Shown one piece after another: positions 28,665 through 48,888 of a stretch of 64,000 nt of DNA. The notes beneath the pieces are model-generated. The model was not told the origin of the DNA, ran no database searches, and saw nothing but the letters and a program-made list of their open reading frames with translations. The position numbers and the translations under genes were made by a program. The stretch's first letter is position 1; each line of letters starts with the position of its first letter. Source of the stretch: Dehalococcoidia bacterium. Its GTDB lineage: Bacteria > Chloroflexota > Dehalococcoidia > Lucifugimonadales > UBA2962. The stretch is from positions 2,586,887 through 2,650,886 of the forward strand of contig OZ252295.1 of the NCBI GenBank assembly GCA_965250195.1, given 5' to 3'.

Positions 28665-28734
28665 GTCGCCCTTGCCGCGGCGAAAAGGGAGGCTGCGAAC
28701 ACTAAGCTCATGGAGGCATTCTAGATGGGAATCA

Positions 28735-28801
28735 TGGGCAGGAGGTTTGTGCGGCCGGTTACATCGTCGCTAAAGCCGCCGCCCTGTCTCAACCGGCGGG
28801 G
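28735..28801 (+). repeat. array repeat R1 (degenerate left half)
   Basis: ..GGTTACATCGTCGCTAAAGCCGCCGCCCTGTCTCAACCGGCGGGG. Confidence 0.6.
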
Positions 28802-28823
28802 TAACTTCGGCTACGGTGTACTG

Positions 28824-29348
28824 TCAGCAGCTCTCATTCGCGGTGCCTCCATCCGGCATCAATGTGTTGCACAGAATCGCCCCTTCCATGTCCGCGCCCC
28901 TCAAGTTCGTAAAGGAGAGGTTGGCGTTGGTCAGGTTTACGTTGCGTAGCACGGCGTCCTTAAAGTTGACGTTGTTCAGGTTGGCGTCCGTCAGATCTGC
29001 TCCGGTGAGGTCCGCACCTGTCAGGTCCGCGAGATAGAGATCGACGCCCTTCATGTTCGCCGACCGCAGGTTCGCCCCGGTCAGATCTAAGCCGTCATTT
29101 CGGTTATTCCCCAAGAACTCCGCTCCCAGGTCCACACCTTCCAGGTCGGCACCTTCACACTGAGCATTTGGCTCGATGGTGCAGTTGCCAGCAGCAGATT
29201 TGCGCTCGGCCTCAGCGGTGGCGAACACGGCCATGCTTTCTGCAACGACGGTGGGCGTCAGGACGTCGGAGGGCGATCCCGCACCAGACGCGCAGGCCAC
29301 CACTAGCATCGTCGCCAGCAGGGCCATCGTGGGAAACAGCTGTCGCAT
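28824..29348 (-). CDS. pentapeptide-repeat lipoprotein, paralog 3
   Basis: Start at MRQLFPTMALLATMLVVAC (lipobox), CEGADLEG, pentapeptide run, C-terminal CNTLMPDGGTANESC. Confidence 0.7.
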   Translation of the reverse strand: MRQLFPTMALLATMLVVACASGAGSPSDVLTPTVVAESMAVFATAEAERKSAAGNCTIEPNAQCEGADLEGVDLGAEFLGNNRNDGLDLTGANLRSANMKGVDLYLADLTGADLTGADLTDANLNNVNFKDAVLRNVNLTNANLSFTNLRGADMEGAILCNTLMPDGGTANESC

Positions 29349-29486
29349 GGGCGAAGTGTAGCTGGGATTATCGGCGAACGAATCGTGCTGGACCGCCAAA
29401 GCCGCGATAGTCGCCGCCAAAACCGACACGGCTTTTATTTTGGGAGTACGTGGCCTCGACTAAGGGCCACCCTGGCTTGACTGCAA

Positions 29487-30149
29487 TCAAGGGCTACGTT
29501 CAACAATGCGCGCGCTGATCCGTAAGGCCTCTGACCCGGCCAAATCTCGTTCCCTCGTCGCAACCTCGATGAAATTTTCGGCCGCATCATCGTTTCCCGC
29601 GCTCGCATGGGCCACTGCCTCTACGAAGGCTGCGGCTGATAAAGCCAGGTGATCGGTTTGTGCTATGAAGCCGGCCTTTATGTCATCCCAACCCGAGGGA
29701 GCATCGATTGCTTCGAAACCTCTCCTGACTTCCACCAACCGCGCTCCGAGGTCTTCCAGTGCCGATAACCAGCCGGGATCGTCGAGCTTCAATGAAAGGC
29801 TGCGCGTCCTCAGTTCTTGATTGATGTTGGCCCATTCACTAATCAGCGGCTGAACGCTGTTGAGGTAAACCGCTGAATCTGTCGAGTCGTTGGAATCCCC
29901 ACTGAGTACATTTGCCAAAACGGCAATGACGATCACAGAGGCGACAACCACCAACACGATCCAGGTCGCCCTTAGAAACCGGGGCTGCGTAGCGATCTCA
30001 AGGTCCTCAGAATCGGTCGGGAGGGCAACGTTTGTCTTTGCCGGTCGACATACGCGGGATGGTATATCTAACGGCCCCAGCTCACCGATGACCCCGAGTT
30101 CCTGCCCCCGCTCAACCCGTGACGGCCTGCTCCTGGGCGGACGGGGCAC
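29487..30149 (-). CDS. hypothetical membrane-anchored protein (start uncertain)
   Basis: One TM helix (WIVLVVVASVIVIAVLANVL) followed by a helical domain. The track start overlaps the cupin gene by 38 nt. Confidence 0.4.
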   Translation of the reverse strand: MPRPPRSRPSRVERGQELGVIGELGPLDIPSRVCRPAKTNVALPTDSEDLEIATQPRFLRATWIVLVVVASVIVIAVLANVLSGDSNDSTDSAVYLNSVQPLISEWANINQELRTRSLSLKLDDPGWLSALEDLGARLVEVRRGFEAIDAPSGWDDIKAGFIAQTDHLALSAAAFVEAVAHASAGNDDAAENFIEVATRERDLAGSEALRISARIVERSP

Positions 30150-30513
30150 CCCAAATGATGGTCAGCTTCAACGGGTCGTCGCCTGTGTTACGGAACCCAT
30201 GATCCACACCCGGAGGAATAAGTATGGCGTCACCGGCAGCCACCGGAACGTCTTCGTCACCGACCCACATCACACCCTTTCCGCTGATGAAGTAGTAGAT
30301 CTCCTCCAGGGTATCGTCTCCTTCATGGATGTGGCTCCCTTCGCTGACGCCAGGGTCCAATTCCCACGCTTGGAACTTGATCGGAAGCCTGCTTAACTCT
30401 TCAAAAAACCCACGTGTCTTTATCTCGCCGTCGCCTTCGTGGATGCTGTAGGTCGTGACGTCTGTTGAGTCGTTTTCTTTCCAGTAGTAATGCATATCGA
30501 TACGGTGGCCCAC
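30112..30513 (-). CDS. cupin-domain protein
   Basis: GSHIHEGDDTLEEIYYFISG..N..PPGVDHGFRN two-motif cupin signature. Confidence 0.75.
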   Translation of the reverse strand: MGHRIDMHYYWKENDSTDVTTYSIHEGDGEIKTRGFFEELSRLPIKFQAWELDPGVSEGSHIHEGDDTLEEIYYFISGKGVMWVGDEDVPVAAGDAILIPPGVDHGFRNTGDDPLKLTIIWGAPSAQEQAVTG

Positions 30514-30611
30514 CTCCGATTCCTGACCTACGTGTCATCTTAGCCCCGTGAGAGAGACGTAGGGTCCGGCAGCCGGCGTGGTCTGCGTCGCACGGGTTAC
30601 TTCCCGGCATC

Positions 30612-30669
30612 GGCTCAATTTCGTGCGCGCGGGTACGCGCCTCAACAAGGGGCCGCCCTGGCTCAACCG
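30612..30669 (+). repeat. array repeat R2
   Basis: GGCTCAATTTCGTGCGCGCGGGTACGCGCCTCAACAAGGGGCCGCCCTGGCTCAACCG. Confidence 0.7.
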
Positions 30670-30689
30670 ACCCTCGCCCGCGCGTGACC

Positions 30690-30856
30690 GCGCACACGCC
30701 CGCGCATTGGACCCCCTATCGCTCCCTGAAGCAGTCCTGGGCAACCTATGTATTTGTCGGGGGTCCTTGACGGGGCTTTACTGGGGTAATCCTGGGACAA
30801 ATGTGTGGTGGAGACGGGGGAGGGTCGAACTACTCCTGCAACACGGGCAGGAGTCC
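30690..30856. repeat. non-coding element X, copy A (ends with a tRNA-3'-end-like sequence and an 8-bp hairpin)
   Basis: Most of it recurs at 44694-44813 and 44933-45018. The minus strand of 30806-30832 reads TAGTTCGACCCTCCCCCGTCTCCACCA. Hairpin ACTCCTGC-N7-GCAGGAGT at 30832-30854. Confidence 0.6.
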
Positions 30857-31023
30857 ATGTAGTGGCGAAGTCAGTTTAGCCGTCGGCAACCTCGGGAACG
30901 GCCTCCGCCTGGCAGGCACGGAGGAGCGCCCCAGTTTCATATGCGGAAGGGGTTCAGACAATCATGCCCGGAGATTCGGGCTCTGTTGCCGCCTGTTGAA
31001 GGAATCGCTTTTTAGAGCTGTGG

Positions 31024-31524
31024 CTACCAGAACTTCCACCAAGGCACGGACTCTTCGACAACCAGGGAGTCGCCTGCGTCGGCTTCCGCCGGTAACGCAA
31101 CGCCGGGCATTGAGCGGAACACCTTGGGGTCCATCTCCGCCAGCAATGTCAACTGTGCGGTGTCGTAATTCATGGAGACGGTTTGGTCCATGATGGCGTG
31201 TCTCATCGCGATCTTACCCGGCATACCATCTATGACGGCCTGAAAATCGCCCGCAATCTGCTTGGCCTTGCCCTTGTCCATCGCTAGCCACGAGTTCAGT
31301 CTGGCCTTTGACATCTCGGCCATTACCTTGTCACCCATATCGAATTCCTCGGTGATGATGACGGTCATCTTGGCTTTCCGATCCACCTCGGTGTCCGAGA
31401 GCATGTTGGTGAACAGTTCAGCCATCTTCGCCGTCTTTTCTTCTTCAGAGAGCTCAACGAGCTTTTTCACATCTATCGGGGCTGCATCGGTAGATTCGGT
31501 CATGACTGCCTCCTGATGTTTCAC
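31024..31524 (-). CDS. hypothetical protein
   Basis: 166-aa ORF with coding-like composition and an acidic helical N-terminal half. No motif recognised. Confidence 0.45.
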   Translation of the reverse strand: MKHQEAVMTESTDAAPIDVKKLVELSEEEKTAKMAELFTNMLSDTEVDRKAKMTVIITEEFDMGDKVMAEMSKARLNSWLAMDKGKAKQIAGDFQAVIDGMPGKIAMRHAIMDQTVSMNYDTAQLTLLAEMDPKVFRSMPGVALPAEADAGDSLVVEESVPWWKFW

Positions 31525-31688
31525 CTGGCGCCCTGAAACTGATCGGGACGAATTGGGTCGATGCTATCACGCACGTTGATGCCATCCCACAGTGACGGCA
31601 CTGATCCAAGAGGGAGTCCTTTTGGAGCGGCCGAATTCGAGGCTCCGGTAGGTTCAGCCGGTGGCCCACCCTTTTGGAGCCCCCAAAT

Positions 31689-31753
31689 AGCTCAGTTTCC
31701 CGCGCGGGGGCACTCAATCCCTAGGACAGGCCGCCCCGCCTCAATCGGCGGGG
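31689..31753 (+). repeat. array repeat R3
   Basis: AGCTCAGTTTCCCGCGCGGGGGCACTCAATCCCTAGGACAGGCCGCCCCGCCTCAATCGGCGGGG. Here the 3' hairpin is 8 bp (GCCCCGCC/GGCGGGGC). Confidence 0.8.
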
Positions 31754-31800
31754 CTACCGGCGCGCGCAGTCGCTGGATGGATCGTCAGACCGGGCTTGGG

Positions 31801-31917
31801 TCAGCGGCGGGGACGGCGAAGGTTTGACCTCCCTGGGAGGGGCTGAGACATGCGCTTGGACCCACCGCCAAACATCGCACTCAACACCCAACGGATGATG
31901 CTGAAGAACCTTTGCAT
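31801..31917 (-). CDS. possible 38-aa small protein
   Basis: Own translation: MQRFFSIIRWVLSAMFGGGSKRMSQPLPGRSNLRRPRR. AAGGAGG sits 7 nt upstream of the ATG. It is the only ORF in the 280-nt module between R3 and R4. Confidence 0.3.
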   Translation of the reverse strand: MQRFFSIIRWVLSAMFGGGSKRMSQPLPGRSNLRRPRR

Positions 31918-32039
31918 TTTTCCGTCCTCCTTAACGATCTCCGGTTCACAATCATATCGCTAGTCTAGAGATGACCTTGAGGGCACGAGGGGACGAGGTG
32001 CTCATCTTTCGGCCCACCTGCTAGTGCTGACCGGGGACG

Positions 32040-32102
32040 AGCCCAGTTTCCCGCGAGCAGCCACATAGCCTCTAAGAGGGGCCGCCCCACCTCAACCGAC
32101 GG
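32040..32102 (+). repeat. array repeat R4
   Basis: AGCCCAGTTTCCCGCGAGCAGCCACATAGCCTCTAAGAGGGGCCGCCCCACCTCAACCGACGG. Confidence 0.8.
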
Positions 32103-32115
32103 ATTAGTGCCTCTC

Positions 32116-32340
32116 CTAGCCGGATGGGCTTTGTGGCCGTAGGCGCGGTCGGACTCTCCTCGTAAATGCCAATCGAAATCCAAACACCTTGAGCCCAGCA
32201 AAATTCGAATCACACTCGTTGCAGGCGAAACTGTTAACCATCGCTCGAACGGTCTTTAGGACATGGTGAGATCCACATGCCGGACAAGACCGACGATGAG
32301 ATGCCGCGGCAACAACTAACGGGCAGATCAACCTGAGCAT
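32116..32340 (-). CDS. possible small zinc-ribbon protein
   Basis: Internal ATG of ORF 32116..32517: MLRLICPLVV..SCPACGSHHVLKTVRAMVNSFACNECDSNF (CxxC..N17..CxxC). The upstream part of the track ORF is just a translation of repeat R5. Confidence 0.35.
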   Translation of the reverse strand: MLRLICPLVVAAASHRRSCPACGSHHVLKTVRAMVNSFACNECDSNFAGLKVFGFRLAFTRRVRPRLRPQSPSG

Positions 32341-32400
32341 TTCGGCTTGATCGCATCGAGCGTTACTCACGAAGTTCTCACCGAGGAGATATCTGTAACC

Positions 32401-32443
32401 CCGCATAGCCCCCGGCAGCCGCCGCCCTGGCTCAACCGGCGGG
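32401..32443 (+). repeat. array repeat R5 (right part only)
   Basis: CCGCATAGCCCCCGGCAGCCGCCGCCCTGGCTCAACCGGCGGG. Confidence 0.65.
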
Positions 32444-32473
32444 AGGAACTGGTCCCTCTGTTTCTGCCAAGTC

Positions 32474-33583
32474 CTAGTTGTGGCAGCCTCGCGAGGGTAT
32501 GGAGATGACCTCTTCAACCACCCCGTTCCGCACGGCGATGAAGTTGTCGTACCGGTTGACAGTCAGGTCTTGCTGCGAGCTGCGCATCTGAAACTGGTCG
32601 CCGACCTTCAGAGGCATCTCGCCTTCGGAATTAAGCACACACAACTCGTCGCCCAGTGAGACGAACTTAACGCCGGGCACACCCTCCACCTCCGGGTCGT
32701 GTTTGCTGAGGCTGCTACCGATCGCTCGGTATCCGACATCACCGATGGCTATGCCGGGCCTGGGGGTGCTGACCACCGTACCCAGCACCTTTCCAGCATA
32801 CTGAAAGTGGCTCTCCATATAGGGCATCGAAGTGCTCATCAACGCGTACGACCCACCCTCGACGTCGGTGATTCCGGGCACCTGCGCCGCCATGTCATAC
32901 GAGTAGGTCTCTCCCGCGGAAACCATCTCCACTTCGATGCCCTCGGCCCGGATCGCCTCGGCCAGGTCCATGGTCTGACGGTAGTACTTGATGGCGTTGG
33001 AGATGCGCTCCTCTTCATCCTTTGGGGCGACGCGCACGGCCGAATGGCTCATGACCCCCATAAATTTTATCCCGGGCATTCCGCTCGCCACCCGGGCGAG
33101 GTGAACACCTGCTTCTACGCTACGGACGCCCGCCCTCCCCATGTTGGTGTCCACCTCAACTGATACACCTACAATCGATCCTTGCTGGCAGGCGATCCTG
33201 GAGATGTCACGCAGATTCTCCTCGCTGTCGATACCTATGGTGACGGTGGCTCGCTTGGCTAGAGCCGCGACGCGCGCGATCTTGTCGTCGGTCACGATCT
33301 CGTTGGCTATCAGCACGTCTGGGATGCCGCTCTCCACCATCACTTCCGCCTCTGCTACTTTGGCGGTACAGACGCCGCCCATCGAGCCTCCCGCCCGGAT
33401 CTGCATGTGAGCCAGCAGCGGGCTCTTTATGTTCTTGGTGTGCTCTCTGATCTTGACGTCGGTGTCTCTGTAAGTGTCGGCGATGTGCTGGAAATTGTGC
33501 TCCAGGGCGTCCATATCTAAGAGAAGGCACGGGGTATCCAACTCTCCGATCGGGGTGCCTACCGGTGGTCTGTATTGGTCCAT
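32474..33583 (-). CDS. PLP enzyme of the alanine-racemase-N fold (D-serine dehydratase/D-threonine aldolase-like, DSD1 family)
   Basis: Start at MDQYRPPVGTPIGELDTPCLLLD. PLP-lysine region REHTKNIKS. C-terminal beta-domain. Confidence 0.65.
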   Translation of the reverse strand: MDQYRPPVGTPIGELDTPCLLLDMDALEHNFQHIADTYRDTDVKIREHTKNIKSPLLAHMQIRAGGSMGGVCTAKVAEAEVMVESGIPDVLIANEIVTDDKIARVAALAKRATVTIGIDSEENLRDISRIACQQGSIVGVSVEVDTNMGRAGVRSVEAGVHLARVASGMPGIKFMGVMSHSAVRVAPKDEEERISNAIKYYRQTMDLAEAIRAEGIEVEMVSAGETYSYDMAAQVPGITDVEGGSYALMSTSMPYMESHFQYAGKVLGTVVSTPRPGIAIGDVGYRAIGSSLSKHDPEVEGVPGVKFVSLGDELCVLNSEGEMPLKVGDQFQMRSSQQDLTVNRYDNFIAVRNGVVEEVISIPSRGCHN

Positions 33584-33695
33584 CAGGTCTCCAGCGTTTC
33601 CTTGCGATACATGCCGCGCGCAACGACGTTGAGTACGCCCTCCGGTCATGATTCTGACCTTTCGCGGCAAACCACATTCTAGTCTGCGAGTTTCT

Positions 33696-33759
33696 GCGCA
33701 GTTTCCCGCGAGGAGGTACATAGCCCCTAAGAGGGGCCGCCAAGGCTCAACCGGCGGGG
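33696..33759 (+). repeat. array repeat R6
   Basis: GCGCAGTTTCCCGCGAGGAGGTACATAGCCCCTAAGAGGGGCCGCCAAGGCTCAACCGGCGGGG. Confidence 0.85.
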
Positions 33760-33777
33760 CCGCCCCGGCAACTGTAT

Positions 33778-34065
33778 TTAACTGTCGGCAAATTCGATGG
33801 TGTAGTTACCTTCTGTGAGGCTCAGGGTGCAAAGTTGGCTACCATTTTCCACGCTGATGCCGCCCCGCTCGGCCAACATTCGCCCGGTTGAGGTTGAGTA
33901 AAAGCCGATTACCCAGACTCTTTTGGTGATAATCGTGGGCGGCACCAGCCGCGTGCCGGTTCCACCATTGGGGGGCACATCCCTCTCATAATGAGCAGGC
34001 CAGGCGTCGCAATGGGCTACGGTTGCTTCGTTCGGTTTGTTCAGGAAATGTATGCCGTAAGCCAA
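33778..34065 (-). CDS. hypothetical protein
   Basis: 95-aa ORF with no motif. Confidence 0.4.
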   Translation of the reverse strand: MAYGIHFLNKPNEATVAHCDAWPAHYERDVPPNGGTGTRLVPPTIITKRVWVIGFYSTSTGRMLAERGGISVENGSQLCTLSLTEGNYTIEFADS

Positions 34066-34130
34066 TGATTCTTCCTTTATCAGCGGTGACCTGGCCGCCG
34101 TGGCTCACGGCGGGGGTGAAACGAACGCTG

Positions 34131-34853
34131 CTATGCCCTCGCGATAGATAGCAGGTGCTGAACCAACCCTTCCGGCATCGAAAGAGCGGGCGAGTGGTCG
34201 GTGTCCAGGGTCAGCACCTCCTCGCACGGCGAGGCGGCAACCATCGCCCTCTGAATGCCGGGCAGAATCAGCCCGTCCCGTTCGCATCCGATGTAGTAGC
34301 GGGGAACTCTCCCATATCTGTCGGCCGACAACGAGACCGGCTCCGCCAGGACGGCGATCGGCTGGGGACCAAGTCGAGCCATCGCCCAATCGGCGTCCTC
34401 CTCCGAGGAGGCCCCGTACAGGGCTCTCCTTGCTCCTTCCCCCTGGACGACGGTGCTGTAAACGCCGTCGTCGGACACCGTCATGTACGGAGCGAAGAAC
34501 TCGTAGCGCTCCGCCAGCCACTCTTCCCCATTTTCTCCGTCCCTGAGGAGGCCCGCACTGACATACACGAGGGCACGTACCGTTACCGGACACCTTTCCG
34601 CCGCCTGGGAAATGGTGTTGCCTCCCAGGCTGTGGCCAACCAGGATGACCGGCTCAGACTGGGCCGAGGTCTGCTGGCAGGTGCGCTCTACATATGCATC
34701 GAGCGTCACCAGTTCCAGAGGAGTTTCATCCTCGCCTTGGCCCGGAAGATCGAACGCCACAGCACGGTGCCCGGCGGCCTCTAGCAGAGGTACAACGTGA
34801 TCCCAAGCCCATGAGCCATGCCATGCTCCGTGTACCAGGACGAACGTGGCCAT
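34131..34853 (-). CDS. alpha/beta hydrolase (methylesterase/SABP2-like)
   Basis: ATG 34853 after AGGAGG: MATFVLVHGAWHGSWAW. GHSLGG nucleophile elbow. C-terminal DHSP. The longer track ORF N-terminus is a translation of repeat R7. Confidence 0.75.
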   Translation of the reverse strand: MATFVLVHGAWHGSWAWDHVVPLLEAAGHRAVAFDLPGQGEDETPLELVTLDAYVERTCQQTSAQSEPVILVGHSLGGNTISQAAERCPVTVRALVYVSAGLLRDGENGEEWLAERYEFFAPYMTVSDDGVYSTVVQGEGARRALYGASSEEDADWAMARLGPQPIAVLAEPVSLSADRYGRVPRYYIGCERDGLILPGIQRAMVAASPCEEVLTLDTDHSPALSMPEGLVQHLLSIARA

Positions 34854-34896
34854 GCTGAGGACCTCCTGCCGTGTTCCAAGCGAATCATCGCACACC

Positions 34897-34942
34897 GGCA
34901 GTTGGCCGCCCATCAACCGCCGCCCTGGCTCAACCGGCGGGG
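34897..34942 (+). repeat. array repeat R7 (rearranged left half)
   Basis: GGCAGTTGGCCGCCCATCAACCGCCGCCCTGGCTCAACCGGCGGGG. Confidence 0.65.
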
Positions 34943-34987
34943 TATCGGACGAGTAGCTCTTAGCGGCACGCATCGTACGTCCAGGCC

Positions 34988-35914
34988 GTGGCCCTATACT
35001 TGTCGGCTATGGACTGGATAATGGCCTCCCTCGGCACAGCAGTCGGGTTTGCCGCCGTCAACGTTCTGGACAAGATAATCCTGGAGCGACACGTCGCCTC
35101 AGTCCCAGTCTTCATCGTCTTCGCCGGCCTTATGCAGCTCCCCAGCGGGATCGTGGCACTGGCGTTCGTGGCCTTTCCGGGCTACCCAGTCGAGACCTGG
35201 CTGCTGGCAATCGGGTCGGGAGGCGGACTCGGCCTCTCCCTGGTGCTTATGTTCTTCGTTTTGCGGCGACAGGACGTCTCGCTTGTAACCGCCGTTTTCC
35301 AGACCGCCCCGGTTTTCGTGGCCATCTTTGCCGTCGTCTTCCTGTCCGATCATCTCTCCGCCTGGCAATGGGTCGCCATCTTCCTCACCGTGGCCGGGGC
35401 GGTCCTGATCTCATTGCGACGCACCGCAGGGGCCCGCAGGCCCACCCTGGGTCTCTGGTTCTTCCTCATGTTGGGCTCTAGCGCCATGCTTGCCGCCGGC
35501 CTGATCCTCTCAAAGGCGGCTCTCGACGACGGCATGTCACTGTGGAATCTCCATACGGTGCGCAGCATAGCGATGGCGACCGCGATGGTGTTGCCGATGA
35601 TCCGGCGGAACACTTTCCCAGAGCTAAAGATGCTCATGCGCAACACCACCGGCCTGTCTCTTTTCGTGTTTACAGAAGGAGGCCTCGCATTCGCCTCGTT
35701 TTACCTGACCACGCTGGCCTTCCAACTAGGCCCGGTGGCTCTTGCCACCACGGTAATGGCGTCCAGGCCGTTGTTCGCGTTCCTGATCGGAGTTCTCCTC
35801 AGCCTGGGAGTGCTAAAGGTCCTCTCCGAGCCTCTCGACCGTGGTTCGCTCGTCCAACGAGGGGCCGCGATCGCCATGATCGTCGCCGGTATATCAGCTA
35901 TTTCCCTTTTATGA
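34988..35914 (+). CDS. EamA/DMT-family transporter
   Basis: About 10 TM segments in two EamA-like halves. Length 308 aa. Exact start uncertain. Confidence 0.65.
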   Translation: MALYLSAMDWIMASLGTAVGFAAVNVLDKIILERHVASVPVFIVFAGLMQLPSGIVALAFVAFPGYPVETWLLAIGSGGGLGLSLVLMFFVLRRQDVSLVTAVFQTAPVFVAIFAVVFLSDHLSAWQWVAIFLTVAGAVLISLRRTAGARRPTLGLWFFLMLGSSAMLAAGLILSKAALDDGMSLWNLHTVRSIAMATAMVLPMIRRNTFPELKMLMRNTTGLSLFVFTEGGLAFASFYLTTLAFQLGPVALATTVMASRPLFAFLIGVLLSLGVLKVLSEPLDRGSLVQRGAAIAMIVAGISAISLL

Positions 35915-35927
35915 GGGTCGCATGTCT

Positions 35928-35993
35928 AAGCTCAGTTTCCCGGGCGGGGTCACATAGCTCTTAGAAGGGCCCGCCCTGGCTCAACCGGCGGGG
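35928..35993 (+). repeat. array repeat R8
   Basis: AGCTCAGTTTCCCGGGCGGGGTCACATAGCTCTTAGAAGGGCCCGCCCTGGCTCAACCGGCGGGGG. Confidence 0.85.
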
Positions 35994-36253
35994 GCTCTAC
36001 GGCACTGGAAGCACCGCCTCACAGGTGCCTGGCGGCGGCCAGCACTAACGGTGGCTCGCCAAATCCCCTTGATTGTCAAAAACTACCGCAACCAATAATG
36101 CCCTGGAGAACGGGGCGGACATTGCCAAGACCCCAGGGATGATTGGGCCATGCTAACGTGTCCACCGCCTGGCTCTATGACCGGGGAAAATCAAAACCCG
36201 AAGATTGCCCAACCTTCAAAGTGAAGTATTAGCTTCTGTAACTAAGGCGAGGA

Positions 36254-36529
36254 ATGAGTCAAGAACCTAACCGTACTAATCAACAACTAAGCGTCTGGAT
36301 GGCCATTGGCATAAGTGTCGGCGTCGCCCTAGGGGCCGTGTTTGACAACGTTGGCTTGGGCATTGCCCTTGGCGTCGCGATAGGGGCAGGGTTGGGATCG
36401 GCCTTTAGCGCGAGAATGCAAAGCAAGTCAGCTGAACCTGCCCGCTTTTTAGTTCTTGCGGGTAGGTTCGGCGGTTGGTTTGTAGCGGCGGCAGGAATCG
36501 TAGGTGTGGTACTCCTAATTGTTGATTGA
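36254..36529 (+). CDS. small membrane protein (glycine-zipper-like)
   Basis: 91 aa. GxxxG-rich helices (IGISVGVALGAVF, LGIALGVAIGAGLGSAF). Confidence 0.45.
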   Translation: MSQEPNRTNQQLSVWMAIGISVGVALGAVFDNVGLGIALGVAIGAGLGSAFSARMQSKSAEPARFLVLAGRFGGWFVAAAGIVGVVLLIVD

Positions 36530-36583
36530 AATGGTCCTGAGCAAGTACATCCAGGCCACGCATAATCAGGCGTTCAGGAAGCT

Positions 36584-36622
36584 TCACAGCCCCTAAGAGA
36601 GGCCGCCCTGGCTCAACCGGCG
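36584..36622 (+). repeat. array repeat R9 (right part)
   Basis: TCACAGCCCCTAAGAGAGGCCGCCCTGGCTCAACCGGCG. Confidence 0.7.
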
Positions 36623-36653
36623 AGCCAAGGGAGTACTACCCATTCACTAGACA

Positions 36654-36800
36654 ATCCTGAAATCCTTTTTCCCTATCCCTGGGCAGGAGGACCCGTATCC
36701 GCTGGTGTCCAAATCTTCGAGGGGGTGTGCCGTATCTGCTAAGGTGCCGTCACACTCAAATGCCAATAAATAGGCTTAGGTCGGCTACTCAACCGGCGGG
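36654..36800 (+). repeat. array repeat R9b, split copy
   Basis: The left arm ATCCTGAAATCCTTTTTCCCTATCCCTGGGCAGGAGG matches the left arm of R10. The right arm CTCAACCGGCGGG (36788-36800) supplies the GGGAGG Shine-Dalgarno sequence for the ATG at 36812. Confidence 0.5.
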
Positions 36801-36811
36801 AGGTATTACCT

Positions 36812-37102
36812 ATGAATAAGCTACTGGCGGCCTTGACCGTAGGGATAATTGGTGCGTTCGCGGTCGCCACGACCGCATTGGCGGCCCAGGGCGTTATTAC
36901 TGAAGTCAATCCTTCCGGGGTGACCGGAATCATTGTTGAGGACGGCACCCGAGATGAAGTGAGGTTTATCAACCCACCCAAGAACGATGTGAGCCTGAGC
37001 GTAGGTCAGTGGGTGGAGTTCACTAAGTCGACCAACAAAGGCGGCAGGCACTTGACCTTCTCGGCCAGTCCGTTAGAGGGTGACCCAGGAGGCGGACGCT
37101 AG
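36812..37102 (+). CDS. small secreted protein
   Basis: Signal peptide MNKLLAALTVGIIGAFAVATTALAAQG. Length 96 aa. Confidence 0.5.
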   Translation: MNKLLAALTVGIIGAFAVATTALAAQGVITEVNPSGVTGIIVEDGTRDEVRFINPPKNDVSLSVGQWVEFTKSTNKGGRHLTFSASPLEGDPGGGR

Positions 37103-37124
37103 CTCGTAGCTGCGTCACGTGGCC

Positions 37125-37181
37125 TATCCTGAAATCCTAGTTTCCTGGGCAGGACCAGACCGCCTTCGCTCAACCGGGGGG
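37125..37181 (+). repeat. array repeat R10 (middle hairpin deleted)
   Basis: ATCCTGAAATCCTAGTTTCCTGGGCAGGACCAGACCGCCTTCGCTCAACCGGGGGGG. Confidence 0.55.
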
Positions 37182-37317
37182 GCCTGCACGTAGCTAGCAT
37201 GGCTTGCAAGAGGCGCTGCACGGCTGCCTGCGGGAGGCTATGGCTTATGTGCGGACGTGCCTGGCTCTCAGAGGCGGCTAGCCATGGGAAGACCCGCGGG
37301 GTTGTTATTCACCCGAG

Positions 37318-37566
37318 CTATGGCCTGATCTCTCTAGCCCACTGACCCGCCAATGCTCTCACCTCGTCGATGTTGGTCAGGGACTGCTTCTCGTGGCTTG
37401 GCGAGCTGACCTTCCACACCTTCATGAGGTCGTCCCACCAAACTTTGACGGAGGTCTGAACGTCGCCGTAGACCACGATCTGCTTGTGGGCCTGACCCGA
37501 TTTGTCCGGGATGTAGGTGATCTCGGGGTCCATAGTCCGCATTCTAGCAGCGTAGAAAACCGCCAC
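37318..37566 (-). CDS. hypothetical small protein
   Basis: 82-aa ORF with no motif. Confidence 0.4.
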   Translation of the reverse strand: MAVFYAARMRTMDPEITYIPDKSGQAHKQIVVYGDVQTSVKVWWDDLMKVWKVSSPSHEKQSLTNIDEVRALAGQWAREIRP

Positions 37567-37583
37567 GGCATTTAGTCTGGGGG

Positions 37584-37626
37584 TGCATAGCCCTTAAAGA
37601 GGGCCGCCCTGGCTCAACCGGCGGGG
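37584..37626 (+). repeat. array repeat R11 (right part)
   Basis: TGCATAGCCCTTAAAGAGGGCCGCCCTGGCTCAACCGGCGGGG. Confidence 0.75.
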
Positions 37627-37679
37627 GCAAGGTCGAATAACAATTCAGACTTTGAGTGCCTTACCAATGCCCATAACCT

Positions 37680-38846
37680 ATGCTAACGGCCAATGGGATG
37701 AGGAGAGTCAAGAGAATAGCCAAGATCGCCGCCAAGTCCTTCCTGGTCTTGCTCATCCTGGCGATAATTTTGATCGTGGCCACGCCCCAGGGCCGGACCG
37801 GCTCTCGGGCCGCCATGTTCGTGATGCAGGTCATACCTGCAGTCCCGATCAAGCCCTTGACCTGGTTTACCGGGGACCCGGAACGACGCCCCATACAGTT
37901 CGAAGGTGCGGTAGGAGAGTTGGAGGCGGACCTCTACATCCCCGGTGGTGACGGCCCGTTCGATGCGGTTCTGCTGTTCCTTGGGGTCAACCCGGCTGGT
38001 AGAGACGATAGCCGAGTGGTCAATCTGGCCGAAGGGCTGGCCAGGACAGGCAGGGTGGTGATGATCCCCTGGTCGGACGACATGACGGCCAAGCGCATTG
38101 TCCCGGGCGAGGTCGACAACATTGTGTTGGCCTTCGAGCACCTAGCTGGCCTCGACTTCGTAGACCCCGATCGAGTAGGGATGGCTGGCTTCTGCGTAGG
38201 TGCGTCTCTAGTCGCCGTGGCCGCCGAAGACCCTCGGATCTCAGACCGAGTCCGATACATCAATTTCTTCGGCGGGTACTTCGACGCGGCCGACCTCGTC
38301 AAGTCAGTGGTGACCAAGTCGAGATCCTATGATGGCGTCGTCGAGGCCTGGGATCCGGACTCCCTGGCCGTTGAGGTGGTGCGCCTTCACCTCATTGAAG
38401 GCCTGTCCGACCCAGCCGAGCGTGAGCTGTTGGAGAGCGCCTTCCTCAGAGGGGAGAGCGTGACCAGGGCAGAGGTTGTAAACCTCTCGGAGGAGGGGAC
38501 GGCGGTGTTCGATCTACTGATGGGGCCAGAGCCCGATGAGGTCGATGTAATTTTCGAACGGCTGCCATCGGCGGTGCACGAGTCGCTTCGACGGATTTCC
38601 CCCAGCACCGGTATCGACCGGTTAAACGCACGGCTTTTGATCATGCATGATCGCGAGGACAACCTGGTGCCATCCTACGAGTCTAGACGCCTCTTCGACG
38701 TCGTTGACGACCGCGGGAACACGTACTACACCGAGTTTTCGTTCTTCTCCCATGTCGACCCCACCGAGCAGGTCGGGTTCACCGGTTACATCACCGAGGG
38801 ATTCAAGCTCTTCCTGCACCTATACAACATGTTCCGGACGTTCTAG
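37680..38846 (+). CDS. membrane-anchored alpha/beta hydrolase (dienelactone-hydrolase-like)
   Basis: N-terminal TM helix. GFCVGAS nucleophile elbow with Cys, as in DLH. Late HDREDNLVP and SHVD. Confidence 0.6.
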   Translation: MLTANGMRRVKRIAKIAAKSFLVLLILAIILIVATPQGRTGSRAAMFVMQVIPAVPIKPLTWFTGDPERRPIQFEGAVGELEADLYIPGGDGPFDAVLLFLGVNPAGRDDSRVVNLAEGLARTGRVVMIPWSDDMTAKRIVPGEVDNIVLAFEHLAGLDFVDPDRVGMAGFCVGASLVAVAAEDPRISDRVRYINFFGGYFDAADLVKSVVTKSRSYDGVVEAWDPDSLAVEVVRLHLIEGLSDPAERELLESAFLRGESVTRAEVVNLSEEGTAVFDLLMGPEPDEVDVIFERLPSAVHESLRRISPSTGIDRLNARLLIMHDREDNLVPSYESRRLFDVVDDRGNTYYTEFSFFSHVDPTEQVGFTGYITEGFKLFLHLYNMFRTF

Positions 38847-38882
38847 CCCTTAGCGTTTGACGAGTTTGACTGGGGTAGACAT

Positions 38883-38945
38883 CCCAGTTCCCCGCGAGCA
38901 GCTACACAGCCCTTAGAAGGGGCCGCCCAGGCTCAACCGGCTGGG
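38883..38945 (+). repeat. array repeat R12
   Basis: CCCAGTTCCCCGCGAGCAGCTACACAGCCCTTAGAAGGGGCCGCCCAGGCTCAACCGGCTGGG. Confidence 0.8.
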
Positions 38946-38973
38946 TGCGGAGGGGGTTTCGTGGGGGGTCTAT

Positions 38974-40062
38974 TCAAAGAGGCCCGTAAAGGTCGTAGGC
39001 GGCAGCGTGCTCCGGCTGGTCCCGACGGAACGTGTCGGGGTTGGTGCCGCACTCCTGCGCCAGCCAGTAGGTAAATAGCTGCAGCGGAGGCAGGTAGACG
39101 ATGGGCGTGAGGAAATCAGCCGCGACCGGTAGCTCAAGCGTGGCGTCGGCCGAGCCAAATTCGCCGTCTCCAGTCTGCACCAGCGCCGCGACATGCGCGC
39201 CCGTTGCCTCGGCGGCTCGTGCGACCTGGACGGCCCGGGCGTGGTACGGGCCGGGTGGTGCGATCAGCGTCACCAAACAACCAGTAGTTGTGGCGACGAA
39301 GGGGCCATGCAGGAACTGCTCCATCTCGAAACCGGTAGTGACTAAATATGCCGCTTCGTTGATCTTGAGCGCCGCCTCATAGGCCGTCGCAGCGTTTGGG
39401 CCGCCTCCGGTAAACGCCAGCCAGCGGGAGTTTACAAAGCGTTTGGCCAGCGCCTGGGCCTGGTCGTCTGTCGCTAACGCGACACTGATTACGTCAGGCA
39501 GAGCCCTGATCGCGTCGAGCGCACCGTCCGAGGACGTGCCCGAGATCGACGCCGCTACAAGCGCCATCGCTGTAATGGCCGAGGTGTGGCTGACGGTGTA
39601 GGTGGCCGACCGGTCGGGTCCTCCGGTGGTGAGCACGATGTCGACTAAGGACAGGTCGGCCACGGTATCGTCGCAGGTCACCAGCGCCGTTACCGCTCCC
39701 GCACCATGTGCCAGCTCCAATGCCCGTCGGGAGATCGCCTTGCGACCGGTGTGGCTGAGGACGACTACGACGTCTTCGCTAAGCAACTCGGGTGGGTTAC
39801 TCACGAACTCGTGGGCGTTCCAGGCGCGGGCGTCGTGGCGCTCGCCGACCGCTCTGAGCAGGTGTTCGGAGACGAGCGCCGCATGCCAGGACGTGCCGAT
39901 GCCTACGATGTGCACGCGGGCGGCGGTCTCTATGCGCGCGGCCAGTTCCGCCGCAGCCAGTGACTGGGTGTCGATGACGCGTGCGATTGCGCTCGGCTGC
40001 TCGCGGATGCACTCGTACATGTGAAACGGGTGGGCTGATCGGGGTGGGGGGCTTTGAGCCAT
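38974..40062 (-). CDS. double-SIS-domain sugar-phosphate isomerase/aminotransferase-like protein (GlmS C-terminal/FrlB/AgaS-like)
   Basis: Two SIS repeats (VHIVGIGTSWHAA...; LAFTGGGPNAATAYEAALK). Length 362 aa. No glutaminase domain. Confidence 0.65.
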   Translation of the reverse strand: MAQSPPPRSAHPFHMYECIREQPSAIARVIDTQSLAAAELAARIETAARVHIVGIGTSWHAALVSEHLLRAVGERHDARAWNAHEFVSNPPELLSEDVVVVLSHTGRKAISRRALELAHGAGAVTALVTCDDTVADLSLVDIVLTTGGPDRSATYTVSHTSAITAMALVAASISGTSSDGALDAIRALPDVISVALATDDQAQALAKRFVNSRWLAFTGGGPNAATAYEAALKINEAAYLVTTGFEMEQFLHGPFVATTTGCLVTLIAPPGPYHARAVQVARAAEATGAHVAALVQTGDGEFGSADATLELPVAADFLTPIVYLPPLQLFTYWLAQECGTNPDTFRRDQPEHAAAYDLYGPL

Positions 40063-40110
40063 CGGTCTATCCTATGCGAGCCCTAACTGGAGTTCCAACG
40101 ACGCGGGGTA

Positions 40111-40173
40111 CCTCAGTTTCCCGCGAGCTGGCACATCGCCCCTAAGAGCGGCTGCCCTGGCTCAACCGGCGGG
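40111..40173 (+). repeat. array repeat R13
   Basis: CCTCAGTTTCCCGCGAGCTGGCACATCGCCCCTAAGAGCGGCTGCCCTGGCTCAACCGGCGGG. Confidence 0.85.
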
Positions 40174-40232
40174 CTGTACGGCCCTGCGCATTCATGTAGC
40201 TATCGACACATTGGCATATCATTCGCGGCACG

Positions 40233-43200
40233 ATGCCTAGTGAGCGTGTTCAACGCCAGATTGACCGGCTGCTCGACGAAGCCGAGCAGGCAATGGGTTT
40301 GCTCGAGTGGCAAATCGTCAGGCAACGTGTCGGGGCAGTCTTCGCTCTCGACCCCGAAAACGAGGACGCTACCACCTACATGGCCGCCGCCGAGCGTGCT
40401 GAGTCGGGTCACGCTGGCGCACCGGGGCCGCCGGAAGCAACCAAACCAGCTACCGAGTCTGAAACACCTACGTCGTTCTCCAACGGCCGCTACACCGTCA
40501 AGAAGTTCGTCGGCGAGGGCGGCAAAAAGAAAGTCTACCTCGCCCACGACGCTCAGCTCGACCGTGACATCGCCTTCGCGCTGATCAAGACCGAGGGCCT
40601 CGACGAAGCTGGCCGTGAGCGCATCACCCGCGAGGCCCAGTCCATGGGAAGGCTCGGGGCGCACCCACACATAGTCACGGTCTTCGAGTACGGGGATGAG
40701 GGCGGAGCGCCGTTCCTGGTCACCGAGCTGATGGGTGGGGGCGACGTCGAGGGGATTCTGGAAGACGCGCCAGATAACCGCGTTCCCCTGGAGCAGGCGC
40801 TAGAAATCGCCGGAGCCACCTGCCGGGGACTGGAGTTCGCCCACAGCCGGGGTATAGTCCACCGCGACCTCAAGCCCGGCAACGTGTGGCTGACGGCCGA
40901 CGGCGTTGCGAAGATCGGCGACTTCGGCCTGGCGGTCGCCATCGACCGGTCCCGGCTCACACAGCACGGAATGATGGTCGGGACAGTCTCGTACATGCCC
41001 CCAGAGCAGGCCCTCGGGGGCGAGGTCACACCGAAAGCCGACCTGTACTCGCTGGGCGCGATGCTTTACGAGATGGTCACCGGCCGACCGCCCTTTCTCG
41101 GTGACGACTCGGTCGCCATCATCGGCCAGCACATCAACACCGCGCCCGTTGCTCCGTCGTGGCACTGCTCGTGCCCGAAGCCACTAGAAGCGTTGATACT
41201 GCGGCTGCTATCGAAAGATCCGGCCGAGCGACCTGAGTCAGCCTCCGACGTGCTGGCCGCGCTGGTTGCGATCGACCCGACGGTTGTCGACACTACGGTC
41301 GAAGAGCAGGAGAACGTCCTCGACAGCCTGGCAGGCGGAGTGTTCGTTGGCCGCAGGGCCGAGATGGACCAGCTCAAAGCTGCATTGGAGGAGGCCCTCT
41401 CGGGCAAAGGTCGCCTGGTGACCCTTGTTGGTGAGCCGGGCATAGGTAAAACCCGCACGGCACAGGAACTGGTGACGTTTGCCAGCATGCGCGGCATGCA
41501 GGTGCTGTGGGGCCGCTGCTACGAGGAACAGGGCGTGCCGCCCTACTGGCCCTGGGTACAGGCGATCCGGGAATACGTGCACGAACGCAACGCCGACGAG
41601 CTTCGCAGTGAACTTGGCTCTGCCGCCGCCGTGATCGCGGAGATCGTGACCGATGTCAGGGATGCCCTGCCGGGCTTGCAAGCGCCGCCTGAAGTGAGCC
41701 GGGAGGAGGCCCGGTTCCGCCTTCTCGACTCTGTGGCCACTTTCCTAAAGAGCGCCTCTCGAAACAAACCGCTGATGCTTGTGCTGGACGACCTGCACTG
41801 GGCCGATGAAGCAACGCTCTCGCTACTCCAGTTCGTTGCCCGGGAGCTGGGCAACGCCAGGGTGCTGGTCATCGGCACCTACCGGGACATGGAGCTGAAT
41901 CGGCAGCACCCTCTCGCTGAGACGCTGGCTGAATTGACCAGAGTACGGCTGTTCGAGCGGGTCCTGCTGCGGGGCCTGAGCGCCGCCGACGTGGGCAGTT
42001 TCATGGAGCTGACCTCCGGTTTGGTGCCGCCCAAAGGCCTGGTGGAAGCCGTCCACAAGGACACCGAGGGTAATCCGCTGTTCGTCACCGAAGTGGTGCG
42101 GCTGCTAGTGCAGGACGGTGAGCTCACCCCGGAGAAAGTGCGGGAGCGTGGAACGGGATCCTGGGAGATTCGCATACCTGAAGGGATACGGGAGGTGATC
42201 GGCCGTCGGCTGAACCGGCTCTCCGAGCGCTGCAACGATGTGCTGACGACCGCCGCCGTGGTGGGACGGGCCTTCGAGATGCGGGTCATGTCCTCGCTGA
42301 TGAGCGACAACATGACCGAGGGCATGCTGCTCGATGTGCTGGAGGAGGCGTTGAACGCTCGGGTGATCGAGGAGCTTTCGGGTTCGGTCGGGCGATACCA
42401 GTTCACACATGCGCTCATACAGGAGACGCTGACCGACGACCTCAGCCTCACCCGTCGCGTGCGCCTGCACGCCCGCATCGCCGAGACGCTGGAAGCGCTT
42501 TACGGCGACCGCACGAAAGACCACGCCGTCGAGCTCGCACATCACTTCGCCCAGGCCGAGGCAATGCTGGGCAGCGACAAGCTGGTCGAGTATTCGCTTT
42601 TTGCGGGCCAGGCGGCTCTGGTGGCGTACGCGTTCGAAGATGCCGAGGCCATCTACCGCCGCGCTCTGAACGCGCTAGAAGGTTCGGAGATGGACGAGTC
42701 GAAGGCGGACCTCACGACCGGCCTGGGCATGGCTCTCGGTGGCAGCCTGCGCTGGGCCGAGGGCTGGCCGATCTTGGAGGAGGCGTTCAACTACTACGAG
42801 GCCGCCGGTCTGAAAGAAAAGGCCCTTGCCATTGTCATATACCCGGACGTTCACGCTCCCTCAAGGGGGCTGTCGGGTGCGAGCTTGGCAATGGAGCGGG
42901 CAGTCGAGCTGGCCGAGCCCGACTCCGCTAAGCGTGCGTACGTTCTGATGCTCTTCGGAGTGTTCGTCTCAGTTGACACGGGGGACGACGACCGTTCAGT
43001 CGAAATTATGGGCCGTGCATTCTCCATCGCTGAGGATCTGGGAGACATGCGGCTCCAGATGGAGGTGTTGGCTGGATGGTCCGAGGTCGACTTCTGGCGA
43101 GCCAAGGCATCGGAGAGCCTGCCGAAGGCGATCCGAGCGGCCAATTTAGCTGTCGAACTCGATGATCCCAACACCGAGTCATTTGCCCGGTTTTACGTGA

Positions 43201-44051: not shown

Positions 44052-44080
44052 CGCGGCGGATCGTTCGGTCGCGGATTCTG

Positions 44081-44142
44081 GGCAGTTTCTCGAGCGGCGG
44101 TACACGCCTCTAACAGGGGCCGCCCTGGCTCAACCGGCGGGG
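44081..44142 (+). repeat. array repeat R14
   Basis: GGCAGTTTCTCGAGCGGCGGTACACGCCTCTAACAGGGGCCGCCCTGGCTCAACCGGCGGGG. Confidence 0.85.
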
Positions 44143-44200
44143 TCTACGGCACTGCCCATCCATGTAGCCATCGATACATTGGCATATCATTTGCGGCACG

Positions 44201-44673: not shown

Positions 44674-44693
44674 CGGCGAGCGAGCGCCTGATC

Positions 44694-44813
44694 GCGCACA
44701 CGGGCGCGCCTTGGACCCCCTATCGCTCTCTGTAGCGGTCCTGGGCTATTCCTGTAACTAAGGGGTGTTGCTTGACGGGGTTTGACGGGGTAATCCTGGG
44801 AGTTTCGTGTGGG
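44694..44813. repeat. non-coding element X, copy B part 1 (interrupted)
   Basis: GCGCACACGGGCGCGCCTTGGACCCCCTATCGCTCTCTGTAGCGGTCCTGGGC...CTTGACGGGGTTTGACGGGGTAATCCTGGGAG aligns with 30690-30797. Confidence 0.6.
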
Positions 44814-44858
44814 CTGGCACATCGTTGTTAGAGAGGCCTCAGGCACGTCAACCGGCGC
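44814..44858 (+). repeat. array repeat R15 (degenerate, lying inside element X copy B)
   Basis: CTGGCACATCGTTGTTAGAGAGGCCTCAGGCACGTCAACCGGCGC, compared with the R13 segment CTGGCACATCGCCCCTAAGAGCGGCTGCCCTGGCTCAACCGGCGG. Confidence 0.45.
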
Positions 44859-44932
44859 TCTGTTTCGACCGAAAGTCCCGGGCCATGGCGGCGAGGGCGC
44901 TTAAGAGCCGCTAGTCACGTATTTAGCACCCC

Positions 44933-45018
44933 CTTGACAGGGCTTTGCTGGGGTCATGCTGGGAGTTGTTGGAGACGGGGGGGTCGAACTACACGTGCAA
45001 CACGGGTGTAGTCCTTTT
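44933..45018. repeat. non-coding element X, copy B part 2 (hairpin plus T-run)
   Basis: CTTGACAGGGCTTTGCTGGGGTCATGCTGGGAG..GGAGACGGGGGGGTCGAACTACAC-N11-GTGTAGTCCTTTT aligns with 30765-30856. Confidence 0.6.
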
Positions 45019-45121
45019 CACTGTCCCCCGAAGTTTTTCCGAATGGTCAGTTGGCCCAGTCTGGTCAGGGGATCAGTATTCGAGTGGCCAGATCGGTCAT
45101 GGCGAACCCCGACTTGCGGAC

Positions 45122-45781: not shown

Positions 45782-45806
45782 AGGGTCCCCCTGGCGCTCG
45801 ACGGCC

Positions 45807-48812: not shown

Positions 48813-48888
48813 TGGAGCCAACGAGCGGACTCGAACCGCTGACCTGCTGTTTACGAAACAGCTGCTCTACCGACTGAGCTACGTTGGC
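48813..48888 (-). tRNA. tRNA-Thr (anticodon CGU), CCA encoded
   Basis: Minus strand GCCAACG-TA-GCTC-AGTCGGTA-GAGC-A-GCTGT-TTCGTAA-ACAGC-AGGTC-AGCGG-TTCGAGT-CCGCT-CGTTGGC-T-CCA. All four stems pair, and U33 and A37 are present. Confidence 0.9.

Follow-up and report, generated by a model that had tools for sequence, protein, structure and literature searches.

The element described here, X, occupies positions 30676–30856 of a 64,000-nucleotide (nt) stretch of DNA from a Dehalococcoidia bacterium (assembly GCA_965250195.1), whose genome consists of one 2.65-Mb contig (OZ252295.1); the whole of this stretch, genome positions 2586887–2650886, was analysed and is called the window below, and positions are those of the window unless marked as genome positions. 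X is not a gene but a mosaic that combines two pieces of recombination-site DNA. We consider it likely that the right part is a displaced attachment (att) site of genomic islands that target ssrA, the gene for transfer-messenger RNA (tmRNA), that the left part (X-L) is a spacer of cassette arrays anchored at tRNA genes, and that X moves together with cargo genes. A preliminary description of the window had reported that 30690–30856 recurs at a second locus, and the recurrence is confirmed at 44684–44813 (80% identity over 118 nt) and 44933–45012 (82% over ~80 nt). Nor is the similarity restricted to the two loci: X recurs in at least five further places of the genome, and a whole-genome BLAST survey detects the left part (~130 nt) seven times and the right part ~20 times.

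The right part is identified by the 3′ end of the host tmRNA. ARAGORN annotates 52 genes for tRNAs and a single tmRNA gene genome-wide, the latter at genome 2360434–2360788 on the minus strand with the 3′ end ...GGGGAGTTCGACCCTCCCCCGTCTCCACCA, and the minus strand of 30806–30831 is identical to the last 26 nt of this gene at 26 of 26 positions. The minus-strand readings given in the preliminary description (...GCAGGAGTAGTTCGACCCTCCCCCGTCTCCACCA for copy A and ...GTGTAGTTCGACCCCCCCGTCTCCAACA for the second locus, copy B) are correct, and the acceptor, discriminator and CCA recognized in them belong to tmRNA, given the identity of these 26 nt to its 3′ end; a search for a tRNA with a matching 3′ end finds none among the 52 genes. 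Upstream of the T-loop X leaves the tmRNA sequence and reads CCGTGTTGCAGGAGT, a stretch that also adjoins the ssrA piece in other genome copies and in many genomes of the order's other families. An alignment of 25 distinct non-ssrA sites, drawn from the host genome (G000) and eight relatives, yields the consensus CG.GtTTgTGGTGGAGACGGGGGAGGGTCGAACTACaCCTG.AACACGG, a block of ~48 nt centred on the T-loop, with conservation ending sharply on both sides and, on the side of the island half-site, directly past AACACGG. The consensus of the half-site, ACTACWCCTGCAACACGG, overlaps with the end of the ssrA copy and is conserved among the repeats, whereas ssrA itself reads ...GAACTCCCCGTCC instead. Large serine recombinases act on sites that a passage of 10.1101/2024.06.11.598349 puts at 40–50 bp, and the size of the ~48-nt block therefore fits an att site of such an enzyme.

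X had previously been considered a decayed att remnant of an integrative element that targets a tRNA gene. It is an island att site in kind, with ssrA as the target, and only copy B is decayed. Copy A, with its full identity and its consensus half-site, is intact and may still serve as a recombinase substrate; copy B has lost two nucleotides and carries a mutated CCA complement, and it is probably not a substrate any longer. The enzyme family to which the sites point is likewise not the tyrosine integrases but the DsiB/DsiA-type serine recombinases. An integration module is found at genome 2355009–2358947, 1.5 kb from the 3′ end of ssrA, and all of its genes lie on the strand opposite to ssrA. 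It encodes a recombinase of 516 amino acids (aa; genome 2357397–2358947) with Resolvase, Recombinase and zinc-ribbon domains, as well as a 209-aa resolvase, a ParB_N protein, a Mom family protein and a primase-like protein, and its gene order matches DsiB, DsiA, ParB and Mom of Dehalococcoides (PMC3146451). In the ssrA-island module described there by McMurdie et al., attL is followed by DsiB (a serine recombinase of 540 aa) and DsiA (200 aa), with ParB and Mom coming after a small RecF-like gene; the Dehalococcoides islands are tandemly stacked, many of them without an integrase of their own, and the closest outside relative of dsiB stems from a deep-sea fosmid (PMC3146451).

Homologues of the host recombinase and further copies of its sites extend this picture. 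The top homologues are 51–60% identical and ~470–680 aa long, and the named ones come from metagenome-assembled genomes (MAGs) of Dehalococcoidia or Chloroflexi. Two paralogues, 88% identical to the recombinase at the ssrA locus, adjoin site copies at genome 497017 and 573053, where the flanks past the CCA end resemble the downstream flank of ssrA, and the paralogue near 573053 retains a small resolvase. No tyrosine integrase is found near ssrA; genome-wide there are nine tyrosine integrase genes, several of them beside tRNA genes. Three complete genomes of the same genus each carry a series of co-oriented sites directly downstream of the tmRNA gene, and a tandem, co-oriented layout within ~100 kb downstream is complete in G003 and G007 and largely preserved in G006. 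Serine recombinases would seem to have made these sites, and they may still use them.

X itself lies in a cassette array. From ~28.7 to 48.7 kb the window holds a series of genes that are mostly solitary, unrelated to one another and encoded on either strand (of the pentapeptide, cupin, racemase-like, hydrolase, EamA, peptidase, SIS, kinase-STAND, Kelch and CoA-transferase types), which are separated by co-oriented 70-nt repeats and end at tRNA-Thr(CGT), the only tRNA gene of the window. There are 39 copies of the array repeat genome-wide, all of them clustered save one at genome 2337209 that has no tRNA gene nearby, and the clusters lie directly downstream of approximately ten tRNA genes in an orientation that is constant relative to the tRNA. 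The repeat copies no tRNA. Its core occurs more than once in three of 401 sampled genomes of the order (29 times in the host, 7 in G002 and 2 in G056), while six others hold a single match with up to two mismatches and the same-genus complete genomes G003, G006 and G007 yielded no array repeat. The idea that the ssrA-type site and the array repeat are two diverged forms of one site was rejected, since the best local alignment of their consensus sequences has a score of 10, which 4700 of 5000 shuffles attain.

X-L behaves as a spacer unit of these arrays that is non-coding and free of open reading frames (ORFs), and all seven of its genome copies lie inside tRNA-anchored arrays. It is followed by an ssrA-type site in four copies (copy A, its duplicate, and those at genome 1676548 and 1683523), each of which is preceded by the array-repeat core CTCAACYG, and by a diverged 70-nt array repeat in the remaining three (copy B1 and those at genome 98279 and 1664890). 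The inverted repeat GGACCCCC/GGGGGTCC (30710–30717/30760–30767) and the four G-runs GGGGG-N8-GGGG-N7-GGGG-N7-GGG (30760–30796) are present as reported in the preliminary description, and X-L ends in a 32-nt module with three G-runs at a spacing of 11 nt. No frame is open in every copy of X-L. One minus-strand frame is open in most of them, which is expected of copies that are 85% identical and GC-rich, and a small protein was rejected for want of a common open frame. An origin as the tail of a recombinase gene, by comparison with dsiB, was rejected as well, the plus-strand translations being unlike the C-termini of the host serine recombinases by eye. We infer no role for X-L other than that of a repeat or a possible protein-binding site.

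The second locus had been interpreted as a duplicated segment into which a repeat was inserted. The pieces are present as stated, and they are better read as two adjacent units, namely, X-L with an array repeat (44684–44870) and a short unit with a degenerate ssrA site (44880–45012), of which only the first is common to a 90.6%-identical copy at genome 97655–98504. The short unit at 44880–44965 is ~91% identical (~8 differences in 86 nt, by eye) to an ORF-less unit in CAUZHS010000045.1, a MAG of another family. This 190-nt unit sits between two array repeats, and it also occurs in two metagenome contigs. With the exact degenerate pattern of the module, the public collections return one MAG contig and two metagenome contigs, all with the same sequence.

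Two cassettes that carry X have recently been copied between arrays. The unit of copy A matches genome 2147144–2148170, in the tRNA-Lys array, without a single difference over 1027 nt, within a wider BLAST match to genome 2147128–2148235 of 97.8% over 1111 nt. At the second locus, ~44166 to ~44742 (~575 nt) match the tRNA-Thr(TGT) array at genome 97655–98504 with no substitutions and one 1-nt gap, a match that begins past the array repeat r44119 and covers a 108-aa ORF and the first half of X-L; past ~44742 identity to the tRNA-Thr(TGT) unit drops to 71–84% within X-L. In both transfers the left boundary is sharp, 10–30 nt past the array-repeat core, and the right boundary lies inside a repeated element. 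These boundaries do not indicate the enzyme responsible, and they show that X travels with cargo genes and that X-L can act as a point of exchange. The previous idea of a recombination hotspot tied to the array holds to the extent that each of the two duplications has X-L, or a point within it, as one boundary and an array repeat, or its vicinity, as the other.

A course of events that would account for both parts begins with an island of the DsiB/DsiA type, which would integrate at the T-loop of ssrA and bring a new 3′ end, so that the old 3′ end would be displaced to the far border of the island as a hybrid site. Stacked islands would leave one such hybrid site between each pair, with island DNA on both sides. 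Sites and their neighbouring cargo would later have been moved into the tRNA-anchored arrays through recombination or rearrangement, and the candidate movers are the same recombinases acting at secondary sites, the array's own recombination system, or recombination between repeats. The five ssrA-type sites inside arrays share the orientation of the array repeats relative to the tRNA, and further ssrA-type sites lie just behind tRNA-Ala(CGC), tRNA-Pro(CGG) and the tRNA-Ala(GGC) array.

Beside the right part lies the hairpin to which the preliminary description had drawn attention. Stems exist in both copies, of 8 bp in A and 7 bp in B, and TTTT follows copy B at 45015–45018; there is no U-run on the minus strand, and on the plus strand only copy B has one. 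The inner arm of the copy A hairpin is in the half-site and its outer arm is formed by the first 8 nt of the cargo side. In A and B alike the outer arm falls just beyond the 48-nt block, its partner being the inner part of the half-site. What had been termed a structure-conserved hairpin is conserved insofar as each copy has a stem; the base pairs differ, and their registers are offset by 3 nt, which means that there is no pair-by-pair compensation. The two stems could descend from a longer palindrome, ACTACACCTGC-N7-GCAGGTGTAGT, via small deletions.

Several observations weigh against an origin of X in ssrA islands followed by transfer into arrays. The repeats of Dehalococcoides mccartyi are all tandem and less than 100 kb downstream of ssrA, whereas X is found upstream of ssrA, at distances of 257 and 271 kb for its two copies and in the array of tRNA-Thr, and X thus fails the positional feature of the ssrA-island family. 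The ~20 ssrA-type sites of the host are scattered genome-wide in both orientations, some just behind tRNA genes, so that plain accretion at ssrA is insufficient as an explanation. The 64-kb window contains no recombinase gene and no PF00589 match. The host recombinase appears to be of the DsiB type, with a putative orthology based on architecture, size, gene order and position. The module of copy A is 100% identical to that in the unit of CAUZHS010000045.1, and such identity across families suggests either recent transfer or function. The hairpin, finally, is restricted to copy A, its exact duplicate and copy B: at ~23 other distinct sites checked, stems have at most 6 bp and none involves the half-site, and the hairpin was therefore rejected as a general feature of the site family.

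The element had also been proposed to be a small RNA gene. Rfam has no family at X or X-L, either at the gathering threshold or at E ≤ 5, and no sigma-70-like promoter or intrinsic terminator is called in 30500–31100 or 44600–45200. A structured RNA was rejected on ordinary fold energies (z-scores against shuffles of −2.2 to +1.0) and on the lack of compensatory changes in X-L, where the covariation term is a penalty (+2.08) and 1 of 27 pairs is changed on both sides, in a single sequence. The proposal takes its most specific form if a plus-strand RNA running from the TTGAC box to the hairpin were an anti-tmRNA regulator, its first 26–30 nt being perfectly complementary to the acceptor and T arm of tmRNA. 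We consider this very improbable. Copy A indeed has perfect complementarity to tmRNA over 26 nt, a hairpin follows in both A and B, with TTTT after B, and a 66-nt plus-strand piece folds somewhat better than its shuffles (z = −2.2). The complementarity is, however, fully accounted for by the derivation of the right part from an ssrA att site, and the remaining z-scores lie between −1.3 and +1.0. Moreover, copy A has no U-run, copy B lacks two of the nucleotides and the CCA complement, the copies of X-L with an ssrA site at genome 1676548 and 1683523 have no hairpin, and no promoter, terminator or Rfam family is called for an RNA of this kind. Derivation of X from a tRNA gene, or from a tyrosine-integrase island targeting one, is less probable still, to the point that we hardly entertain it. 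A T-loop-like GTTCGA, a 7-nt acceptor-like run, discriminator A and CCA had pointed in this direction, and the array that holds X is anchored at a tRNA gene in a genome whose tyrosine integrase genes include several beside tRNA genes. Yet the exact match to the 3′ end of X is carried by the tmRNA gene, neither ARAGORN nor Rfam (at both thresholds) detects a tRNA or pseudo-tRNA at X, the 5 nt on one side of TTCGACC in X are not complementary to the 5 nt on the other, and the window has no integrase gene. By eye, the 100 nt upstream of X on the minus strand contain no GGAGACG.

A rival of another kind concerns the left part, and it is compatible with the right part being an ssrA scar. X-L, or at least its 32-nt module, might be a working part of the array, either an accessory protein-binding site, comparable to the direct repeats of attI, or an outward promoter on an ORF-less cassette, and X would then be a functional junction and not a passive scar. 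The module always directly abuts a recombination-type site, be it ssrA-type or an array repeat; its G-runs, 11 nt apart, are spaced by about one helical turn; it holds TTGACG or TTGACA after an A/T-rich stretch; and its complete identity extends over 32–33 nt to an ORF-less 190-nt unit between array repeats in a MAG of another family. On the other hand, no sigma-70-type promoter is called in the module, where TTGACG and TAATCC are spaced by 14 nt, and transcription driven from copy A would be antisense to the sole nearby gene. The position of X-L within arrays varies, and the exact module matches outside the host genome stem from one organism or population. The conservation of the module may reflect only recent transfer, given these outside matches to one population and the confinement of multiple cores to three of 401 genomes. 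In the 90%-identical pair of cassettes, X-L and the module are only 71–78% identical, as against 100% in the adjoining ORF, which indicates a recombination boundary rather than constraint. On balance a working module seems doubtful to us. Similarly doubtful is a broader proposition, in which ssrA-type sites and 70-nt repeats are interchangeable boundaries of a single integron-like system of gene capture behind tRNA genes, with X-L as a functional accessory. Such a system would be confined to a few marine Dehalococcoidia lineages, X-L would be a landing pad for a recombinase or partner protein, or a cassette promoter, and X would mark the junction of serine-recombinase ssrA islands and tRNA arrays. 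We retain the reading of X as a displaced ssrA-island site joined to an array spacer, the features of which are collected in Table 1.

Table 1. Features of the two X loci and of the array that contains them, in window positions.
Feature	Position	Strand	Description
Array repeat r30652, right side truncated	30612..30675	+	...GGCCGCCCTGGCTCAACCGACCCT; directly before X copy A
Duplicated unit	30674..31707		X copy A, 166-aa cargo ORF and first 17 nt of next array repeat
X-L copy A	30676..30805	+	non-coding spacer; holds GGACCCCC/GGGGGTCC inverted repeat; ends in module
32-nt G-run module, copy A	30766-30797	+	CTTGACGGGGCTTTACTGGGGTAATCCTGGGA
ssrA direct repeat, copy A	30806..30831	-	AGTTCGACCCTCCCCCGTCTCCACCA; 26/26 against tmRNA 3′ end
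Island-side half-site, copy A	30832..30846	-	plus strand ACTCCTGCAACACGG; family consensus ACTACWCCTGCAACACGG; replaces tmRNA from T-loop onwards
Hairpin, copy A	30832..30854		ACTCCTGC-AACACGG-GCAGGAGT; arms 30832-30839/30847-30854; 8 bp, 7-nt loop
Cargo ORF	31024-31524	-	166 aa; no Pfam match
X-L copy B1	44684..44813	+	module 44771-44801; after ORF 44347-44673 (+)
Diverged array repeat	44814..44870	+	...GGCACGTCAACCGGCG; at the place of copy A's ssrA-type site
Short ORF-less unit	44880..44965	+	ends in second G-run module, 44933-44964
Degenerate ssrA repeat, copy B	44967..44990	-	24 nt; CCA to ACA; 2 nt lost from G-run
Hairpin, copy B	44988-44994/45006-45012		ACTACAC/GTGTAGT; 7 bp, 11-nt loop
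Half-site, copy B	44991..45005	-	
tRNA-Thr(CGT), array anchor	48813..48888	-	co-oriented with the two ssrA repeats and with every array repeat

Additional ssrA-type sites and large serine recombinase genes were observed elsewhere in the genome. Four sites within 45 kb downstream of ssrA (genome 2315310–2350861) are all inverted with respect to ssrA, which suggests inversion between sites. The site at genome 1190553–1190599 lies 45 nt behind tRNA-Pro(CGG) and that at 323427–323473 lies ~465–510 nt behind tRNA-Ala(CGC), each in the orientation of the tRNA and with no array repeat between. Within the ~100 kb downstream of tRNA-Ala(GGC) (genome 497000–598000) there are nine ssrA-type sites, oriented both ways, and three genes for large serine recombinases: two are DsiB-like, a small resolvase accompanying one of the pair (567149–569553), and the third (588829–590310), which is more distant, stops 18 nt short of a site. 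In the same region, ARAGORN calls an unusual tRNA-like gene whose anticodon has 2 nt, at genome 504191–504265 on the minus strand, 1.6 kb past the recombinase gene at 501018–502553; the Dehalococcoides integration module is reported to have a pseudo-tRNA inside its mom gene (PMC3146451).

The arrays, too, have features of their own. Array repeats are found at 28700–48700 of the window and at genome 92688–99634, 492692–494306, 1145267, 1618429–1620953, 1665741–1690482, 1693935–1694288, 1899607, 1947107 and 2148158–2151839, and some copies are reduced to a 25-nt core, GGCCGCCCTGGCTCAACCGGCGGGG. A conserved stretch of ~200 nt (...GGGGGAGGGGGTGCGTACC...GGCAACCGGTCAACCGCTGAGAGCAAGCGCGTGCCATAGGC...GGGCAACCGTTCAACC...) separates the tRNA terminator from the first array repeat at four loci, those of tRNA-Ala(GGC) at genome 492398, tRNA-Pro(GGG) at 1617998, tRNA-Ile at 1690814 and tRNA-Gly(GCC) at 1898427, and a near-identical terminator hairpin, TATAGACGGCTCGC...GCGGGCCGTTTTC, stands directly 3′ of many different tRNA genes, most of those examined. 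One cassette of the window's array (40233–44051, plus strand) encodes a protein of 1272 aa whose domains are a kinase, AAA_16 (STAND-type ATPase) and TPR.

Among known systems, integrons offer a parallel to the setting of X-L, in that ORF-less integron cassettes and attI are likewise short non-coding units between recombination-type repeats, with spaced direct repeats beside the core site and an array of single-gene cassettes. The window differs in having no integron integrase (PF00589), and the array repeat has one RYYYAAC-like box (GCTCAAC) with no paired GTTRRRY in its conserved part, by eye; the array genes are on both strands, and the arrays begin behind tRNA genes. If the 32-nt module does work in these tRNA-anchored arrays, they would constitute a new system of gene capture. 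Closer to the right part of X are the displaced tRNA and tmRNA gene fragments of the Islander database (PMC4383910), where an island is marked at its far border by a piece copied from the 3′ end of its target gene, although the islands treated there have tyrosine integrases, and the tycheposons of Prochlorococcus, which form tandem arrays at tRNA and tmRNA genes of marine bacteria with small genomes (10.1101/2020.12.28.424599). In both cases the repeats adjoin the gene that they copy, whereas the host has an ssrA fragment at a tRNA locus and not at ssrA, and its tRNA arrays are punctuated by a 70-nt element that copies no tRNA. Tycheposons likewise rely on tyrosine recombinases.

Serine recombinases are shared with SCC (staphylococcal cassette chromosome) and its CcrAB enzymes, a comparison that McMurdie et al. 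themselves have drawn (PMC3146451). Here as there, the large serine recombinase is encoded along with a small one, a single-copy essential gene receives the insertion at its 3′ end, and short direct repeats bound stacked elements that are sometimes without a recombinase. SCC differs in its target (rlmH rather than ssrA), its phylum and its sequences, and the activity of the Dehalococcoidia enzymes is so far predicted.

The nearest counterpart is found in the ssrA islands of D. mccartyi (PMC3146451; PMC2764846), where, as in X, the repeat is the 3′ end of the organism's own tmRNA and its first 19 nt are the published repeat primer TGGTGGAGACGGGGGAGGG, which is identical to 30806–30824. In both organisms the island-side flank is conserved and differs from ssrA, a serine recombinase of ~520–540 aa, a 200-aa resolvase, ParB and Mom are encoded beside ssrA and on its opposite strand, and cargo modules without an integrase lie between repeats. 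The identity to ssrA extends over 26 nt in the host versus 20 in D. mccartyi, the recombinase gene is 1.5 kb from ssrA in the host and overlaps it in Dehalococcoides, and X-L has no counterpart in the published Dehalococcoides description. Judged by its sequence, the conservation of its flank and the presence of the module, the right part of X is a member of this published repeat family. The puzzling end of a tRNA without a tRNA is in this light a routine scar of a tmRNA island, and a candidate RNA gene is thereby removed. The Dehalococcoides island family, with its full module of recombinase, ParB and Mom, is extended to a marine SAR202-type genome, in which ssrA scars can lie far from the tmRNA gene, in arrays of single-gene cassettes behind tRNA genes, and the recent copying of two X cassettes shows that accessory genes of this small genome are still being exchanged by way of its repeats.

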